Shown here: in pieces, positions 2,133 through 42,241 of the stretch
How positions within the stretch are numbered: position 1 is the stretch's first letter
Layout of the letters: each line of letters starts with the position of its first letter
Source: a virus
Lineage: Duplodnaviria > Caudoviricetes
Virus record (IMG/VR): IMGVR_UViG_3300008113_000019
Location: 32,001-96,000 of that record
DNA length: 64,000 nt
Reading direction: 5' to 3' (one strand)
Translations under genes and position numbers: made by a program
Notes under the pieces: model-generated
Told to the model about the DNA's origin: nothing
The model's database searches: none
Seen by the model: only the letters and a program-made list of their open reading frames with translations

Positions 2133-4430
2133 TTACTTAATTAGATGAGCTACGACCTTCACGGCCGAGTTTGCAACAGTCTGAACGAGATAGAGATTCA
2201 CATTCGCAGTATCAGTATTTGCAGTAAATGTTCCGAGTGGAGAAGCGCCACCGTTTGAAGCAACAGTACCATACACAGTCACAAAAGCATTGAGTCCGCC
2301 GTCATGAGCAAGAACCAGTTCCGAAAGTTGTGTATTGCCATTTTTTACTTGGACTTCAAACTTCGCCGAAGAATATGTTGCTTTCGGGAATCTGTAAACA
2401 AGTACAGGACCAACAGTAGAACCAATGTCAGCATTTGCTGCCACGTCGATTACATATTCGTTTTGAAGTGTAGTAACACCGCCAACGGTAAGAGATCCAG
2501 CCAGAGATGTGGCACCGCCAACACCAAAGGTGCTAAGTACGTTAGCCGCACCGGTAACTGTAATCGTGTTCGAAAGTGTTGTCGCGCCAGTAACTGCAAG
2601 AGTATTCGCTAATGATGTTGCTCCAAGAACCGTGAGCGTGCCATCAGTTTCAATTGCAGTCGAAGTGATGAATGTATTAACAGTCGAGTTGCCAACATTG
2701 ATTCGTGTCGTCGACAGATTAACATTAGCACCAACATTCAGTGTAGTTACGTTAGCAGTTGTCGCATTCAGAAGACCTAGTGTTGATAGACCAGTTACGT
2801 TCAATGTATTTGAAAGCGTAGCTGCACCAGTTACTGCAATTGTATTCGAAAGCGTTGCAGCTCCAGTCACACCAAGAGTGCTAGAAAGGGTCGTAGCTCC
2901 AGATACACCAAGAGTATTTGAAAGCGTAGCAGCGCCGGTTACACCAAGCGTGTTTGCTAGTGATGTTGCTCCAAGAACCGTGAGCGTGCCGTCTGTTTCA
3001 ATAGCAGTGGATGTAATGAACGTATTAACCGTTGAGTTACCAACGTTAAATCTAGACGTAGTAAGATTAACGTTTGCACCAACATTCAATGCAACTGAAG
3101 CGTTTGCTGTTGTAGTATTTAGCGCACCATTCAGAGATGCCAGTCCAGTCACACTAAGAGTGTTTGACAAAGTAGCAGCACCAAGGACTGCTAGAGTTCC
3201 ATCGGTATCAATAGATGTAGCAGTAATAGACGTATTAACTGTCGAGTTGCCAACATTGATTCGTGTCGTCGACAAGTTAACATTGGCACCAACATTCACG
3301 GCCACAGAAGCATTTGCTGTTGGTGTATTTAAATTACCGGAAGCAGTAGTCAGGCCGGTGACTGAAAGCGTATTTGAGAGAGTAGTAGCACCGAGAACCG
3401 CTAGAGTTCCATCGGTGTCAATTGCTGTAGCAGTAATTGCAGTATTAACTGTTGAGTTGCCAACATTTACAGCGGTTGTTGTTAAATTGACGTTTGCTCC
3501 AACATTCACGGCCACAGAAGCATTTGCTGTCGTGGTATTTAATCCGGCTGCGGCGTTTGCAAGTCCAGATACGGTCAATGTATTCGAGAGTGTTGTCGCT
3601 CCAGTCACACCAAGAGTGCTAGAAAGAGTTGCAGCGCCTGTAACAGCAAGAGTATTTGAAAGCGTTACATTTCCTGTGACTGCAAGAGTATTCGAGAGAG
3701 TTGTTGCTCCAGTAACCGTAACTGTATTTGCAAAATTAGCATTACTTGTAACGTTAGCAGCACCAGTAACTGTAAGATAACCGGTAGGAGTAATTGCAAG
3801 GTTAGCAGTACCCGACCATGTTCCATTTCCGAATGTACTATTCAGTGTAGAGTTACCGACATATACAGAAGTAGCATTGGCATATACATTTGCACCAATA
3901 GCCATCGCAGTAGTATTACCAACAAACAGGCCGGTGCTGAAAGCAGTCGGTGTCATGTTTGCAGTTGACGTACTATTTGCAATTTGAATGCGCGTTGGGC
4001 TAATATTTGTGTTTACAACATTGTTGGATTGTGTTATAATAGCTATGCTGTTAACGACAGTATTAGCAGTACCAAGACCTAAGTGAACGCCAACTGGACT
4101 AAGGAAACTGTTCGAAGTACTGTTGCCTGCTAGCACACGAATGCCAGCATCAGCGGCGACATAAGCAGTAGCATTTGTGGTAATTACCAGGTTGGCAGAA
4201 AGACCGTTGACATTACCGCCACGAAGAGCATCTGTTACTACAAGATTATTAGCACCAAAGGTACCCCATAGTTGAGAGGTACGGCTAATTGTCGAGTTGC
4301 CAGTGTTAGCATATGTGGTATTGGCCGTGATGATTTCACGTGAAAAGGCATGCAGCAGTTCGTTAGTCTGAAGCAACCAAACTTCAAAACTATCAGTAAT
4401 AATGTCTACGTTAGCTACTTGTCTTGCCAT
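2133..4430 (-). CDS. tail fibre / virion structural protein with beta-helix-like repeats
   Basis: Many 12-aa TLSNTLxVTGAx repeats and three to four longer repeats; position in tail module. Confidence 0.75.
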
Positions 4431-4639
4431 TAATTATTCCTATGTACTAACTGTAGTAAAAGTTCTTTGATATCACGAAGATCGTTTTCAACTTCATCTA
4501 TTCTCTTGCACAGATTGTTGTTTCTTTTAATAGATTCTCGTGTTGCCAAGAACTTTTTATATTCTTCTTCATCGTTATTTATGATGACACCGGTATCGGT
4601 ATCTTTTACATAACCATGATGATTTGTTTTTGCTAACAT
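4430..4639 (-). CDS. small conserved T4-like coiled-coil protein
   Basis: 'VKD..TG.IIN' start and leucine-rich end; translationally coupled to neighbours. Confidence 0.75.
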   Translation of the reverse strand: MLAKTNHHGYVKDTDTGVIINNDEEEYKKFLATRESIKRNNNLCKRIDEVENDLRDIKELLLQLVHRNN

Positions 4640-30805: not shown

Positions 30806-32460
30806 TGGCATTAAAGGTTCTTATCACTGCCATCGACACAACCAACACGGCTAAATCTTTTGGCATCGTTGGTTCTGTTTTACTTAATGAAAGTGATATT
30901 AAAAGAGCTGCAAAACCAATTGCAGCCAACGACGATGCAGTTTCTTATCAAAAAACAGAATTAAACTCTAAAAAACTAGTTGCCGTTATAGATCAACTTT
31001 CTATAATGGACAACTTGTTTAAACAAAAGCTAACTAATCAAAAAATTGCATATCAAAATAATAAATTGAATGAGCAAGAAGATAGAATAGAGCGACAAAG
31101 CCGATTAGAAAAACTCAAAGACGCAGAAAAAGTTCACGGCTCAGAAGAAGGCGGACTTGGATTTCTGGCGCTTGCAGGTATTGGTTTGTTGGCATATGAT
31201 CCTATTATGAACGCAATTAAAGGTGTTGTAGATTTTACTGTTGAAGCCGGGACGTTCATTTCAGACACTGTAAAAGAGATTACCTCGTTTTTTAATGGTT
31301 TTTTGCCAGACGAACCAGAAGAAGAATCAATAGAAACCACGGCGCTTCCAACAGCATTACCTGCCGGAACTCTCAGAGGTCAAGCGGAAGCCGGTGTTAC
31401 GAACCCTCCACCACCTCCACCGGCTCCCGTTGATGCAAAACCGATTCCGCCGCCTGCTAAACCAGCCGGATCGCTGAGAGGCCAAGCTGAAGCGGGTGAT
31501 TATAAGAAACCGGTTGTAACAGCAGGTCCGACCCAAGAATCTAAACCAGCTACAAGTTCTAAGCAAGTAAAAGATGATAGAAGTTGGTGGGAACGAAATG
31601 CACCAAGTTGGGCGGGCGGGAAATCAGCACCAAGTGCCCAGTCTGGACAACAGGAATCAGCGGCAAAGTCGCCTTCAAGTAAAGTGATTAAAGTTAGCCA
31701 TCCTTCTACTGGAGAAGGATGGGGTATTGCTGGCGCCAACGATCAAAGAGGGCGTCCTGTAGTATTCACTAAAGAAGGCGCTGAAGCTTTTTATAAGATG
31801 ATGATAGATTCGAATGGCGTGGTAAAGCCGAGCGACGTTACGAGCAGTAAAAGAACGCGTGCGTATCAAGAAGAAATGAAAAAGCAGGGTTATAATCCTG
31901 CGACAAGATCACTTCATTTAAGTGGCCTTGCTATGGACATTCATGGTGAATCAAACGCTTGGATAAAAAAGCACGGTGCTAAGTATGGGTGGGTAGAAAA
32001 CAAATATAAAGGCACTCATGGTGGCCACTTTCAGTTCGGCGGAAAGGGTCTTTCTCCTGAACAAGGAGAAGTTACTGCTAGGCAATCGGTGGCTGAAAGA
32101 GTTGTGAATAAAGGCGGCGAGGTTGTCGATAAAACTCTTACAAACATGGCAGAATTTATTGGTACTATTGGCGGAAAGGTTGTCGGACCTGGGGTTGCTC
32201 GCGATCTTACAACCGCCGCTCCTGATTTTGCAAAACTCATTTCAAATGAAGCGGCTGTACAAACTGCAGAAATTGCTAAAATAAAAAGCGATGCAAACAA
32301 ACCTGCACCGCGTTTGACAGTATCTCCACCGAATATCAGCGCGGCTGGTTCGACTGCTGTACAAAATGCACCTACAATGATTGACAGAAATAGTGTGCAA
32401 TACTATCTAAGCCGTTTTGGATATAAAGAAACAAACGCACCAATTAAAGTAGCTAGATAA
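30805..32460 (+). CDS. tail-associated protein with peptidase M15-like (LAS family) domain
   Basis: S..RT...Q, SLHLSGLAMD, HG.KYGW and H..HFQ zinc-ligand pattern; paralog of the upstream gene. Confidence 0.7.
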   Translation: MALKVLITAIDTTNTAKSFGIVGSVLLNESDIKRAAKPIAANDDAVSYQKTELNSKKLVAVIDQLSIMDNLFKQKLTNQKIAYQNNKLNEQEDRIERQSRLEKLKDAEKVHGSEEGGLGFLALAGIGLLAYDPIMNAIKGVVDFTVEAGTFISDTVKEITSFFNGFLPDEPEEESIETTALPTALPAGTLRGQAEAGVTNPPPPPPAPVDAKPIPPPAKPAGSLRGQAEAGDYKKPVVTAGPTQESKPATSSKQVKDDRSWWERNAPSWAGGKSAPSAQSGQQESAAKSPSSKVIKVSHPSTGEGWGIAGANDQRGRPVVFTKEGAEAFYKMMIDSNGVVKPSDVTSSKRTRAYQEEMKKQGYNPATRSLHLSGLAMDIHGESNAWIKKHGAKYGWVENKYKGTHGGHFQFGGKGLSPEQGEVTARQSVAERVVNKGGEVVDKTLTNMAEFIGTIGGKVVGPGVARDLTTAAPDFAKLISNEAAVQTAEIAKIKSDANKPAPRLTVSPPNISAAGSTAVQNAPTMIDRNSVQYYLSRFGYKETNAPIKVAR

Positions 32461-39382: not shown

Positions 39383-39585
39383 TATGCCTTCTCCATATAT
39401 TCAACCATGTTGTCGATGATCTTCTCAAAGTCATCATCCGGATGCAATGCATCATCTACACAAATATCATTGTAGAGGTCGGTCATAGTATCACGGATCT
39501 CTACGCCATAAGCGCCACAGATGGCTTCATAGATATAGGCGTGAGGATCATCCTGAGCAAGGATATATTCATACAACCGAGTCAT
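39382..39585 (-). CDS. hypothetical acidic early protein
   Basis: Coupled ORF (TAATG) with RBS. Confidence 0.72.
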   Translation of the reverse strand: MTRLYEYILAQDDPHAYIYEAICGAYGVEIRDTMTDLYNDICVDDALHPDDDFEKIIDNMVEYMEKA

Positions 39586-39767
39586 TACACTTCCTCCACA
39601 AAACCATGCGCCGCAGCATGATATTCCACGAGCTCTCGAGCTTCAGGAACACGAGAAATAATATCCTCCATCATACTCTCGAGGTATCCGAGTTTAAACG
39701 CAATATTAGCCGATTCAGAAGCTCCAAGTTCCTTAGCAATGTGATCGATAAGCTTTGCAATATACAT
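39585..39767 (-). CDS. hypothetical early protein
   Basis: Coupled ORF with RBS. Confidence 0.7.
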   Translation of the reverse strand: MYIAKLIDHIAKELGASESANIAFKLGYLESMMEDIISRVPEARELVEYHAAAHGFVEEV

Positions 39768-39769
39768 TC

Positions 39770-40060
39770 TTACATCTCCATCATAAGTTCATGAGCATGA
39801 CGCTCGGCAACAGCATTGTAGTTGGTACAGTCGCGGAAGATCACCTTAAACTTCATCATCTCGAGAGCAGGTTCGGCGAGACGAACAATCGAATACTTCG
39901 TCGGCGACTTTTCGTTGTAGTACTCGATGTAGATCCAGTCAATCAGGTCACCGGCAGCATTCCAGTCCTTCATGATCTTGACGACTTCACCACGGATGGT
40001 ACCAGCAGCCGATTCATAGCGGACGCGATCGCCGATGAGGATAGTCTTAGGATAAGCCAT
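39770..40060 (-). CDS. hypothetical early protein
   Basis: Start moved to MAYPKTIL after AAGGA RBS. Confidence 0.72.
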   Translation of the reverse strand: MAYPKTILIGDRVRYESAAGTIRGEVVKIMKDWNAAGDLIDWIYIEYYNEKSPTKYSIVRLAEPALEMMKFKVIFRDCTNYNAVAERHAHELMMEM

Positions 40061-40091
40061 GATCAATTCCTTTTTCACTGTTGATATAATC

Positions 40092-40122
40092 ATTCTACAG
40101 TATTTTAGATATTATGTACACA
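40092..40122 (-). promoter_or_regulatory. early promoter
   Basis: GTGTACA-17 nt-TAGAAT, extended TG. Confidence 0.8.
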
Positions 40123-40136
40123 GTTATTTTTGAAAA

Positions 40137-40322
40137 TTAGAGATAATTTTCGGTTTTAAATTGGAGGAGGATTTCGGGAGTGGTGAAGGTGATGGTGATA
40201 GTGGGAAGGTTGTTGTTGGGATTGTTGTTGTAGTTGATATTGGTGATGTGGGGGTAGTAAGGAGTGAGAGTGGTGAAGATGTTATGGTTATAGTCGAAAT
40301 CGAAGGTGATGGTGTTGGACAT
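40137..40322 (-). CDS. 61-aa Asn/Thr/Ile-rich early protein with a nearly guanine-free coding sequence
   Basis: Only 5 G in 186 nt; AAGGAG RBS, own promoter, upstream terminator. Confidence 0.75.
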   Translation of the reverse strand: MSNTITFDFDYNHNIFTTLTPYYPHITNINYNNNPNNNLPTITITFTTPEILLQFKTENYL

Positions 40323-40348
40323 GTTTTTTCTCCTTAGCTTACTTTACC

Positions 40349-40378
40349 ACCCTACATAGTTTTCAAAATTTTGTACAT
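40349..40378 (-). promoter_or_regulatory. early promoter
   Basis: TGTACA-17 nt-TAGGGT, extended TG. Confidence 0.7.
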
Positions 40379-40413
40379 AAAAAAACGCACTCCAGAAACC
40401 CAGAGTGCGTTTT
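40379..40413 (-). terminator. intrinsic terminator
   Basis: AAAACGCACTC/GAGTGCGTTTT stem followed by a T-run on the minus strand. Confidence 0.8.
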
Positions 40414-40435
40414 AGTTTTCAATGTAAAGAATGAC

Positions 40436-40981
40436 TTAGTATGCGGTATCGAAAAAGAACGTCTGGAACAATCTACCGTCTTCGAAGGTGGATCCAAAAT
40501 AATCTACAGATGCGTGGAACAGATTGCCGCGGTAGAGGATGATCCGGTTGTAGACGTTGCCAATCCTATCTACCTCTTCCCACTTAGTGTAGTCATAGGC
40601 CTCATAATCGGAGTCTACCTTTTCTCGATTGCCTGTGGCCTTGTGACGATATAATGCCGTACCACCGCTTGCTGGTGCATTCGGTGTAAGATAACATACA
40701 CCGGCCCACGTATTGAAGCTGTCAGCATGGATCCAGGTTCTATCCTGTGCCGTACACAACTGGAATGCACCGGTGTATCCGGACTCTTCATGCCAATTTG
40801 TCACCGGTCCTGCAGCTGCAACCAAATGGCTAATGGCATTTTTGATAGAGTCGTTCAACATCGGAGCCGTTCTTACACCAGGATAATTTCCTTTGAAGTT
40901 AAAAGGAAGGTTCAAAGCCATGGCCCGAACGGCATCAGGATCGTCGTAGAAGTTTTCGGCAATGACTAGATTGAGTTTCAT
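40436..40981 (-). CDS. 2OG-Fe(II) oxygenase-like protein (DUF6445-like)
   Basis: NFYDDPD.VR, YPG.RT, HAD (HxD), YL, GGT, FH, RL..TFF. Confidence 0.8.
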   Translation of the reverse strand: MKLNLVIAENFYDDPDAVRAMALNLPFNFKGNYPGVRTAPMLNDSIKNAISHLVAAAGPVTNWHEESGYTGAFQLCTAQDRTWIHADSFNTWAGVCYLTPNAPASGGTALYRHKATGNREKVDSDYEAYDYTKWEEVDRIGNVYNRIILYRGNLFHASVDYFGSTFEDGRLFQTFFFDTAY

Positions 40982-41652
40982 GTGTACAACCTATGATACG
41001 ATTTAACAAGGTCTGCAGCCTTTTCGATGTAGTTCGATGGCCGCTCGACGAAGACCTGAGCATCGATTTCATCGTCAATGCCGATCATGATTACGATGTC
41101 TTTGGCCGAGATACCAGTCATCTCCCAGAGCATATAGGCGTACAGACTTGCCTGTAGGAAGTATCCCTCGATCCATTCCTTCCTCTTACGCTTGGTCGAT
41201 GTCTTATAGTCGATGATTGAAAGTCTACCATCATAGTCAGCAATCAAGTCACACGTGCCAGCGATCTTAAGATGGTGGCTAAAGAGAGTGCACTCAGTAG
41301 CACGGATCATATCAACCTTCTCGTCAAGGACCATTTTGATTTGACGAAACATTGACATGTTGTACGGCATAGAGGTATCAACCTCCTCGCCGAGAATATA
41401 CTTTTCACACATTGTATGGATATTAGTACCGCGTGAAGCAGCTCGAGCCGAAACTCGGGCTGCTTCTTCCTCCCCAACTCTTTTTTTCCATTCGTTGAGT
41501 GCAGTCTTATCAGTCATTCTGCCGAGTACGGTAGTTACTGATGGATAGCGTTCTCCTGTCGGAGTCTCATAAAGCCGAGTTTCACCATCAATACGATTAA
41601 GTTGAGCGAACTCAATCAGATCGTGTTGAAAGTCTTTACGGTTGTAGTCCAA
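40978..41652 (-). CDS. PD-(D/E)XK exonuclease (Cas4/lambda-exo-like)
   Basis: YPSVTTVL, RGT..H, AG.CDLI, IIDYKTS, Q...YA; probable TTG start at 41652. Confidence 0.88.
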   Translation of the reverse strand: MDYNRKDFQHDLIEFAQLNRIDGETRLYETPTGERYPSVTTVLGRMTDKTALNEWKKRVGEEEAARVSARAASRGTNIHTMCEKYILGEEVDTSMPYNMSMFRQIKMVLDEKVDMIRATECTLFSHHLKIAGTCDLIADYDGRLSIIDYKTSTKRKRKEWIEGYFLQASLYAYMLWEMTGISAKDIVIMIGIDDEIDAQVFVERPSNYIEKAADLVKSYHRLYT

Positions 41653-42241
41653 GCTTCTGGCGAGCAATGATGTATTCCTTACAATTATCACCATGCCAGC
41701 GTTTGAAATTGCTGGCATCGACATTTTTACCACAGTGAGAACATGTTTTCTTAGTTCTATTTTTAGCACGTTCTCTTATTAATGTCAAGGTAGAATTTTT
41801 ATGATTTTTACCGTACATAGGATTTTTTTCACCTGACACGTCTGCATGATTTTTTGATATATTAGACTTGTGCTTCTCAGAAAACTTCACACCCTTTTTA
41901 GCCATACTGACCTTTGTTCCTATAATCTTTTTCATTTTATCCTGATTAGGAAGACCAGAAAAAACAAAACCACCTTGGCCGCCTTTGGCTATATTATAGC
42001 ACAGCGGATCTTTTAGGGCTTCTGTTGTTAATAGATTTTTTTCTTCAAAAATCATCTGCTCTTTCGTTTCATGAACAGATAATACTTCTTTTTTAAAATT
42101 TTCTAATCCGTACTTTTTAATAGCATTTTTAATTGCTAAACCAGAACCCATGTAGTTATCATTAAGATCTTGTGTTCCATGCATGCCAATATAGTATCTA
42201 TTGTTAATTAGATTAGTAATTTTATAAATGATGTAGAACAT
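41636..42241 (-). CDS. free-standing GIY-YIG homing endonuclease with NUMOD3 repeats (Seg-like)
   Basis: IIYKITN...YYIG.H, YMGSG, YNI..GG, NPMYGKNH; AT-rich; TATAAATA at 42266-42259. Confidence 0.88.
   Translation of the reverse strand: MFYIIYKITNLINNRYYIGMHGTQDLNDNYMGSGLAIKNAIKKYGLENFKKEVLSVHETKEQMIFEEKNLLTTEALKDPLCYNIAKGGQGGFVFSGLPNQDKMKKIIGTKVSMAKKGVKFSEKHKSNISKNHADVSGEKNPMYGKNHKNSTLTLIRERAKNRTKKTCSHCGKNVDASNFKRWHGDNCKEYIIARQKLGLQP

Follow-up and report, generated by a model that had tools for sequence, protein, structure and literature searches.

A nearly guanine-free protein-coding gene of an uncultured phage is under nucleotide-level selection and may act as a translated Rho-loading platform

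The window analysed here, a stretch of 64,000 nucleotides (positions 32,001 to 96,000 of the IMG/VR virus record IMGVR_UViG_3300008113_000019), carries on its minus strand a small open reading frame (ORF; 40322..40137) of 61 codons (186 nt, stop included) that consists of 5 G, 73 C, 64 A, and 44 T; its coding strand is thus 2.7% G and 39% C. The five G residues occur in the ATG (40320), in two Asp codons (40301 and 40295), and in two Glu codons (40175 and 40151), and the ORF contains a 119-nt run with no G at all, a tract in which every G:C pair is oriented in one way. Of its 60 codons, 42 end in C, and the encoded protein has no G, A, V, R, C, W, or internal M. A recount of the letters confirmed what an initial annotation had reported of this ORF, namely the number and positions of its G residues, the length of the G-free run, the preference for C-ending codons, and the missing amino acids, and its remark that the neighbouring genes are normal in G content also proved correct.

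The window lies in a 106,898-bp contig that is estimated to be 63% complete. Among the 117 ORF-called genes of this contig, the G fraction of the ORF (0.027) compares with a mean of 0.220 (standard deviation [sd] 0.034) and a next-lowest value of 0.156. The G-free run is the longest stretch in the contig without any one base (the runner-up is 48 nt), and the chance expectation of such a run anywhere in the contig is ~2e-8. The plus-strand C count averages 41.2 (sd 7.4) per 186-nt window across the contig and falls to its minimum of 4 at the ORF. When the 126 ORFs of at least 40 amino acids were compared, the third-position C of the ORF was 0.70 vs a mean of 0.21 (sd 0.08) and a next value of 0.43, and its GC skew was −0.87 vs −0.26 for the next ORF. 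This bias ends at the limits of the ORF, and the leader and promoter have ordinary G and C.

The G-free ORF is real and is not the assembly artefact that the initial annotation had proposed to check for. Logan contigs from runs of three other studies cover it, those of X2 (record 11) and X9 (record 17) with 0 differences; the X6 contig (record 14) shows 1 difference over the whole 1001-base stretch, and X6 is possibly the source sample. Runs X2 and X11 also contain a second strain (window 39911-40640), and one 730-base X11 contig of this strain differs at 44 positions over that interval. Within the ORF, the second strain has 12 differences, which involve only C, T, and A on the coding strand and none of which makes a G; the changes in the flanks include G.

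A word-indexed search identified 22 related protein clusters, and a scan of IMG/VR recovered 32 related viral loci at 59–98% identity (from 51 pattern-matched stretches), and the family alignment comprises 22 unique nucleotide sequences. The indels among these sequences are of 3 or 6 nt only, third-position changes are numerous, and the start codon is found at the same place, as ATG in 10 and TTG in 11 of the 22 (one lacks the 5′ end). The median ratio of nonsynonymous to synonymous substitution rates (dN/dS) is 0.20, with a mean dS of 0.70 (183 pairs; the truncated L032 and L033, and pairs with dS ≤0.05 or ≥5, were excluded). The gene is real, protein-coding, and under purifying selection. 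AlphaFold2, run on the 22-sequence alignment, predicts a beta-alpha-beta-beta-alpha domain with a mean predicted local distance difference test (pLDDT) score of 86.2, and the 61-amino-acid product is, on this model, an acidic domain of that topology that is selected as a folded protein. Two strand segments of the model, at alignment columns 4–7 and 41–47 (window ~40313-40302 and 40202-40182), read T-x-T-x-T, and one sheet face is expected to be almost wholly Thr/Asn/Asp, an expectation derived from residue alternation along the strands and not from a measurement on the model. Such a face may reflect ACC/AAC codon pressure at tolerant surface positions.

Other searches found no known family and no further relatives. 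Neither megablast nor tblastn matched the ORF to any of 50,697 phage records, its protein has no Pfam or PHROG family and no usable match in the ESM Atlas, and Rfam at E ≤ 1 over 39500-41000 gave only two sub-threshold chance matches. A profile search of 1.84 billion representatives returned three matches, that is, the family itself, a 55-amino-acid fragment, and a repetitive 961-amino-acid protein that was judged spurious. The family is narrow, and no distant, normally composed relatives were found in the profile search. Structure searches with the predicted fold gave only generic resemblances to ferredoxin-like, RRM, or ACT domains, from which no function is drawn: the best Foldseek E values (0.06 in pdb and 0.08 in the viral set) were below significance, and the best VIA-align Z (6.4) was within the tool's stated background of 7–8.

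The depletion of G is a property of the whole family, although it is not absolute. The initial annotation had proposed to examine whether G-depletion is conserved among homologs; G is avoided at synonymous sites throughout the family, but the G fraction of the relatives ranges from 2.7 to 9.3%, and relatives hold 8–17 G per 186 nt (counted over the aligned ORF or its matched part). Relatives use E, D, G, V, A, R, C, and W. The Gly-containing relatives that the annotation had anticipated do exist, because 17 of the 22 unique sequences carry Gly, as GGA, at column 38 in a P-S-G-N-P loop; the GP(A/G)GGxP motif of small phage proteins to which it had pointed was not seen. G is scarcest in the window allele and its closest kin, where it persists only in the start codon and in four Asp/Glu codons that are invariant or nearly so.

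The gene has expression signals of its own (Table 1). Promoter-early stem-loop (PeSL) cassettes of T4-type phages were reportedly described by Arbiol et al. in 2010, and the intrinsic hairpin in front of the gene, which terminates the transcript of the upstream DUF6445 gene, corresponds to the stem-loop half of such a cassette. The hairpin is found upstream of the gene in all 31 related loci with upstream sequence, as well as in the window, and its stem shows compensatory changes in the alignment. The same 31 loci and the window have TGTACA-N17-TAnnnT at 54–61 nt before the start codon; the promoter of the gene in the window matches 8 of 12 consensus positions, which is under the threshold of a generic scan. 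The ribosome-binding site (RBS) is kept as AAGGAG or AAGAGG in the family alignment, in which the 5′ leader holds several G in and around the RBS. Strict copies of the promoter occur three times in the contig, all on the minus strand (window 38995, 40121, and 40378). This promoter family reads (A/G)TGTACA-N17-TAG(G/A)(G/A)T, and each strict copy lies ~25–30 nt ahead of an RBS; two of the copies follow a hairpin or a T-run, and the copy at 40121 does not. The −35 hexamer TGTACA is palindromic and departs from TTGACA.

Behind the gene, the 32 sequences with downstream DNA all lack a hairpin terminator within 150 nt past the stop codon. The next promoter begins 15–28 nt past the stop codon in the window and 19 loci, and a TGTACA-N16-TATAAT variant, read by eye, stands behind the stop in four further loci; in seven loci the RBS of the next gene directly follows the stop, and three show a third arrangement. 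The upstream neighbour is a DUF6445 gene in the window and in 4 loci but differs elsewhere, and at least three downstream arrangements occur. The separate promoter, the AAGGAG RBS, and the upstream terminator noted in the initial annotation are therefore all present in the window and conserved in related loci. Judged from these signals, the gene looks like an expressed, separately promoted early gene in a terminator–promoter cassette of the PeSL type. As in the cassettes described in the available part of Comeau et al. 2014 (PMC4122927), a hairpin terminator is directly followed by an early promoter ahead of a small ORF (31 of 31 loci and the window), the motif is repeated in the genome (the three strict copies), and the gene occurs in differing neighbourhoods among relatives. 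On the other hand, that part of the source does not mention a base-censored cargo gene for PeSL, the hexamers seen here (TGTACA/TAGGGT) depart from the enterobacterial consensus, and the junction behind the gene has no stem-loop.

The synonymous sites reveal that the composition of the gene is not merely a consequence of its protein sequence. In the window ORF, none of the 27 eligible codons ends in G, although 5.3 would be expected from genome usage (P = 0.002). Across the family, only 1 of 101 eligible column-codon types does so (TCG, in one subgroup), against 19.1 expected (P(≤1) = 5e-9). Glu is encoded by GAA in 67 of 67 cases, Lys by AAA in 29 of 29, and Gln by CAA in 17 of 17, whereas the genome uses 30% GAG, 58% AAG, and 44% CAG. 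Third-position C is 0.655 in the family vs 0.198 in the genome, and third-position G is 0.003 vs 0.166; G is also reduced at the first (0.126 vs 0.337) and second (0.025 vs 0.165) positions. The preferred codons are ACC (76% in the gene family and 17% in the genome), CCC (53% and 4%), TCC (90% and 6%), and CTC (91% and 14%), and CTG and CCG are entirely absent. In all 32 loci, the third-position C fraction (C3) of the gene is 0.52–0.83 and its third-position G fraction (G3) is 0–0.02, whereas the other ORFs of the same loci have a C3 of at most 0.43, a G3 of at least 0.07, and a G fraction of at least 0.144.

Five neighbouring genes served as controls and were traced through the same loci by tblastn, with the exclusion of matches covering <70% of the control gene. 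Their G-ending types numbered 39/148, 58/196, 13/39, 16/77, and 165/575 (21–33%); the first of these is the small gene directly downstream (MAYPKT...), an internal control of ordinary composition with no Pfam or PHROG family above threshold. The long late structural genes of the phage favour T- or A-ending codons (C3 of 0.12–0.23), and because of this preference, ordinary translational selection in the phage points in the opposite direction. The coding strand is kept G-poor and C-rich both at synonymous sites and through the choice of amino acids at tolerant positions, and nucleotide-level selection acts across the whole family, beyond the needs of the protein. The initial annotation had suggested selection on the nucleic acid rather than on the protein; the single G-ending type among 101, set against the controls, bears out the former, which acts alongside selection on the protein. 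Free use of G at the synonymous sites of homologs, which it had named as the observation that would speak against its idea, was not seen.

The transcript of the gene is correspondingly extreme in its physical properties. The ORF RNA has a minimum free energy (MFE) of −3.5 kcal/mol, whereas 1,722 minus-strand windows of 186 nt average −44.2 (sd 9.8), and of these windows the one with the least structure falls on the ORF. When the C>G bubble was computed with 78-nt windows, following the definition given in the available text of Nadiras et al. 2018 (PMC6144790), the bubble of the gene was the largest of ~2,800 on both strands of the contig, and the next maximum was 29.5%. Dinucleotides of a pyrimidine followed by C (YC) occupy 47 of 185 positions in the ORF, which is the contig maximum (mean 18.1, sd 5.1), and the transcript contains seven matches to (YC-N9-13)x6. 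The mRNA of the gene is structure-free and dense in YC dinucleotides. Of five related records, four have their strongest C>G window at the gene; in the remaining one, the gene ranks first on its own strand. In one record, G002 (L037), two C>G windows (37–38%, at ~3091-3170 and 4505-4585) exceed that of the family gene there; they coincide with 40-nt A-free and 42-nt T-free runs and may be low-complexity coding repeats. The preference for C over T at third positions is 0.82 where it makes a YC dimer (40 columns) and 0.64 in NAY codons (20 columns), a contrast with Mann–Whitney p values of 0.017 and 0.007 in which the columns are not phylogenetically independent.

We tentatively favour, as possible but short of probable, a reading in which the gene doubles as a ribosome-masked Rho utilization (rut) site that ties early transcription to translation; Rho is proposed because it is the best-known reader of structure-free, YC-dense RNA. 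The unfoldable message would be a substrate for the loading of the host termination factor Rho. While the gene is translated, transcription would continue into the next promoter or gene, since no hairpin terminator stands behind the gene. If translation of the early message failed or were shut off, Rho would load and read-through would stop. The result would be a translation checkpoint or insulator, like the Rho polarity in the extension of T4 immediate-early to delayed-early transcripts; in a variant of this scheme, abundant early RNA would titrate Rho. The rut-like tract is itself an ORF with AAGGAG and an ATG or TTG start, and access for Rho would need the uncoupling of translation. Three known features of rut sites are present: the bubble extends over ~80 nt or more, four or more YC dimers recur at a spacing of 9–13 nt, and secondary structure is scarce. 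According to the available text of PMC6144790, Rho binds C-rich, G-poor single strands via 5′-YC clefts, and all tested Escherichia coli and Salmonella templates with bubbles >78 bp or an area >700 %.bp terminated in a Rho-dependent manner in vitro; the bubble area of the gene is 6440 %.bp. The accessible part of Hinton 2010 (PMC2988021) states that rut sites in coding sequence are masked by ribosomes and active only when translation fails, and that T4 delayed-early RNA needs translation against Rho polarity. Synonymous recoding towards pyrimidines was enough to make a translated Bacillus subtilis gene a Rho target, as reported in the available text of a 2026 study in Nature Microbiology (PMC13323073).

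Several points weigh against Rho as the reader. All of the rut features restate the composition and hence are not independent of the observation that they are meant to explain. Given the strong RBS and the conserved protein, ribosomes would be expected to cover the RNA under normal conditions. In 24 of the 32 sequences with downstream DNA, a separate promoter serves the next gene, and therefore polarity would cost that gene little. Rho specificity differs between species (available text of PMC13323073), and the Rho of the host of this phage may differ as well. The contrast between YC and AC contexts is modest, and alignment columns share phylogeny. Furthermore, the 17 sequences with Gly all encode it by GGA rather than GGC, and Asp is GAC in only 45% of cases.

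Among the alternatives, the strongest, which we nevertheless consider somewhat unlikely, is that the composition serves expression only and Rho is uninvolved. A protein needed in quantity right after infection would have its whole short message kept open for immediate, helicase-independent, and possibly cold-robust translation. A message with no G can form no G-C or G-U pairs, and C in place of U removes A-U pairs, so that this explanation accounts for both the avoidance of G and the preference for C over T; it also fits the ORF being the least structured 186-nt window, the strong RBS with its own early promoter, and the freshwater labels of the metagenomic runs that contain the stretch. However, other early genes behind the same type of promoter are ordinary in composition, and the late structural genes, which are presumably highly expressed, prefer T- and A-ending codons. 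Initiation is governed mainly by the first ~40 nt of a message, and a constraint on the whole ORF is not expected on this ground. Half of the unique sequences start with TTG, unlike a gene built for maximal expression, and the stronger C bias at positions that form YC is not predicted.

We regard as improbable the proposal that the message avoids G to escape a G-acting RNase or toxin, an RNA-modifying defence, chain terminators of the ddhGTP type, or a shortage of GTP. The avoidance of G at all three codon positions and at synonymous sites is what this would produce, and the only G left in the window allele are those of the start codon and four constrained Asp/Glu codons. However, escape from G predicts replacement by the T and A endings typical of the genome, whereas C3 instead rises from 0.198 to 0.655, a shift that the initial annotation had mentioned without weighing it; for this reason, the resistance to a G-specific RNase and the elongation under GTP limitation put forward in the initial annotation are not supported. 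Protection would be only partial, because relatives tolerate up to 17 G per 186 nt and the leader keeps G around the RBS, translation itself needs GTP, and no such nuclease or defence system was identified.

A constraint at the DNA level, by which the template strand is kept free of a modified or attacked base or carries a strand-specific DNA signal, appears similarly improbable. The 119-bp tract with its uniformly oriented G:C pairs would suit such a signal, and the contig has a PHROG match to a glycosyltransferase. However, no thymidylate-synthase/dCMP-hydroxymethylase family, TGT/DpdA, or QueC was found in the contig, and PF00303 and PF01702 were not found in five related records; these records are all fragments (21–63% complete), which makes the negative result weak evidence. 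The bias stops at the ends of the ORF, with an ordinary leader and promoter, relatives keep 8–17 template C, the enrichment of C on the non-template strand is not explained, and canonical G-quadruplexes or i-motifs occur in 0 of the 22 sequences.

The absence of any nucleotide selection, with an odd amino acid composition plus codon optimization or a recent transfer from a background of other codon usage in its place, is very improbable: although most of the G deficit lies in the first and second positions and NNC, GAA, and AAA rank among the classic optimal codons of some bacteria, the synonymous sites alone reject it, the bias persists across a dS of ~0.7, the late structural genes of the same phage go the opposite way, the shifts to CCC, TCC, and CTC with no CTG or CCG match no known optimal-codon set, and we know of no genome that combines ~65% C3 with ~0% G3.

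Other candidate elements were considered and rejected. The search for G-quadruplexes and i-motifs allowed loops of up to 7 or 12 nt, and runs of three or more C vary from 1 to 6 among the 22 unique sequences. No R-loop motif was found in these sequences either, and pyrimidine-rich RNA is a poor case for R-loops; the suggestion in the initial annotation of a G-quadruplex or R-loop on the template strand can thus be set aside. The Shine–Dalgarno sequence (SD) pairs with an internal CUCCUU in the predicted fold, but this segment is not conserved, and sequestration of the SD was dismissed. Mimicry of the anti-SD by AUCACCUUC was dismissed in view of codons that vary synonymously (ACC vs ACA/ACT). 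An (AAN)n tract of the kind bound by Hfq is present only in the window lineage, and GGA sites for CsrA are absent from the window allele. As for tRNA supply, ARAGORN found 0 tRNA genes in the window and the contig.

With respect to known systems, the gene most closely resembles the rut sites of Rho-dependent terminators, of which rutA/rutB of lambda tR1 are an example, in that both are stretches of 80 nt or more of unstructured RNA, rich in C and poor in G, in which YC dimers recur at regular intervals. It differs in that the element lies wholly inside a conserved protein-coding gene rather than in a leader or 3′ region and in being more extreme than the rut criteria require. A regulatory leader peptide with a Rho attenuator, of the tnaC type, whose function lies in the state of translation and not in the product, was also considered; with 61 codons, a dN/dS of 0.20, and a pLDDT of 86, the product here is selected as a folded protein, and translation itself may have a second role. 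The extension of immediate-early to delayed-early transcription in T4 (Hinton 2010, PMC2988021, available part) shares with the cassette a T4-type early promoter unit and read-through that would depend on a ribosome-masked rut site in coding sequence. However, no specific T4 gene is described in that part as compositionally built for the role, whereas here a single gene carries the signal, and many of the present loci place a fresh promoter directly behind the gene. The purine bias interpreted as Rho avoidance (Nature Microbiology 2026, PMC13323073, available text) likewise has synonymous pyrimidine or C content setting susceptibility to Rho. In contrast to that bias, which arises under runaway transcription, this gene is driven to the Rho-target extreme within an otherwise ordinary phage, whose mean coding-strand GC skew is +0.04.

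We read the source of the window as a freshwater myovirus that is uncultured and distantly T4-like. The contig has no nucleotide match in the 50,697 phage records; a tail/baseplate protein matches those of Pseudoalteromonas phage XG4, Sinorhizobium phiM12-type phages, Caulobacter Cr30, and cyanomyoviruses at 24–33% identity, and PHROG tail, baseplate, and ribonucleotide-reductase families are present. The stretch was contained in 24 runs from 11 studies, labelled freshwater metagenomes, and no RNA run is listed among them. ARAGORN, run on 17 of the related loci, detected permuted transfer-messenger RNA (tmRNA) genes, with tags ANDNDSFADIRLAA or AANDNSSVEFALAA, in 8 of them at ~3–4 kb downstream of the family gene, and none in the window. 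Judged from the permuted tmRNA, the host is possibly an alphaproteobacterium. The tblastn relatives of the upstream DUF6445 gene are found in 39 cyanophage and marine-virus records at <60% identity (27–46% among the matches listed) and are variously annotated. Further upstream, a SegE-type GIY-YIG/NUMOD3 homing endonuclease gene overlaps the start of a PD-(D/E)XK nuclease gene, the latter being present in 29 of the 32 related loci.

Table 1. Coordinates of the G-free run, the signals, and the neighbouring genes in the window, and of the permuted tmRNA genes in related loci
Feature	Sequence	Position	Strand	Details
G-free run (C-free on the plus strand)	window	40176-40294	minus	119 nt
C>G bubble of the transcript	window	40065..40363	minus	222 consecutive windows; maximum %C-%G 47.4; area 6440 %.bp
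Intrinsic terminator hairpin	window	40382..40413	minus	14-pair stem, 4-nt loop, then T-run
Early-type promoter	window	40377..40349	minus	TGTACA-N17-TAGGGT
Shine–Dalgarno sequence	window	40335..40330	minus	AAGGAG, 7 nt before ATG
Next early promoter	window	40092..40120	minus	TGTACA-N17-TAGAAT, starting 16 nt past the stop codon
Downstream small gene (MAYPKT...)	window	39770..40063	minus	ordinary composition, internal control; G-ending types 39/148
Upstream DUF6445 gene	window	40436-40981	minus	E = 1e-14
PD-(D/E)XK nuclease gene	window	40978-41769	minus	
SegE-type GIY-YIG/NUMOD3 homing endonuclease gene	window	41636-42241	minus	
Permuted tmRNA	L004	8896-9330		
Permuted tmRNA	L007	8949-9337		
Permuted tmRNA	L010	3376-3770		
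Permuted tmRNA	L015	8172-8529		
Permuted tmRNA	L022	8664-9058		
Permuted tmRNA	L024	7144-7539		
Permuted tmRNA	L025	5976-6371		
Permuted tmRNA	L031	7863-8258		

A wider generalization, which we consider unlikely, is that aquatic T4-like phages set the relation of their early transcripts to Rho by means of three-letter alphabets. In such a scheme, C-free transcripts would be Rho-proof, whereas a G-free, C-rich gene would be Rho bait: it would serve as a translation sensor or Rho sponge and, at the same time, encode a folded protein whose amino acid alphabet has been reshaped by the RNA-level function. No C-free cassette was found in the contig or in five related records, and the longest base-free run in the related records was 64 nt.

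Among the papers listed by a literature search on guanine-free or G-less sequence, none described base-censored coding genes in phages or bacteria. As far as sequence can tell, the finding appears to be a rut-like C>G element that is embedded in, and seems to reshape, a translated gene of a PeSL-type cassette. The synonymous sites of short phage genes are usually ascribed to mutation bias or weak codon selection. The third positions of this gene stay at ~65% C and ~0% G across a dS of ~0.7, and its protein alphabet is narrowed too, which makes the gene a clean example from nature of an RNA-level (or DNA-level) function that prevails over codon usage where a gene is translated. Should Rho not be the reader, the gene would point to another factor that recognizes C-rich, G-free RNA during phage infection. 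If the reader is Rho, the gene would offer a testable model of early transcription–translation coupling in T4-type phages, which the available part of PMC2988021 leaves open, and would be the mirror image of the purine bias attributed to Rho avoidance (PMC13323073, available text).

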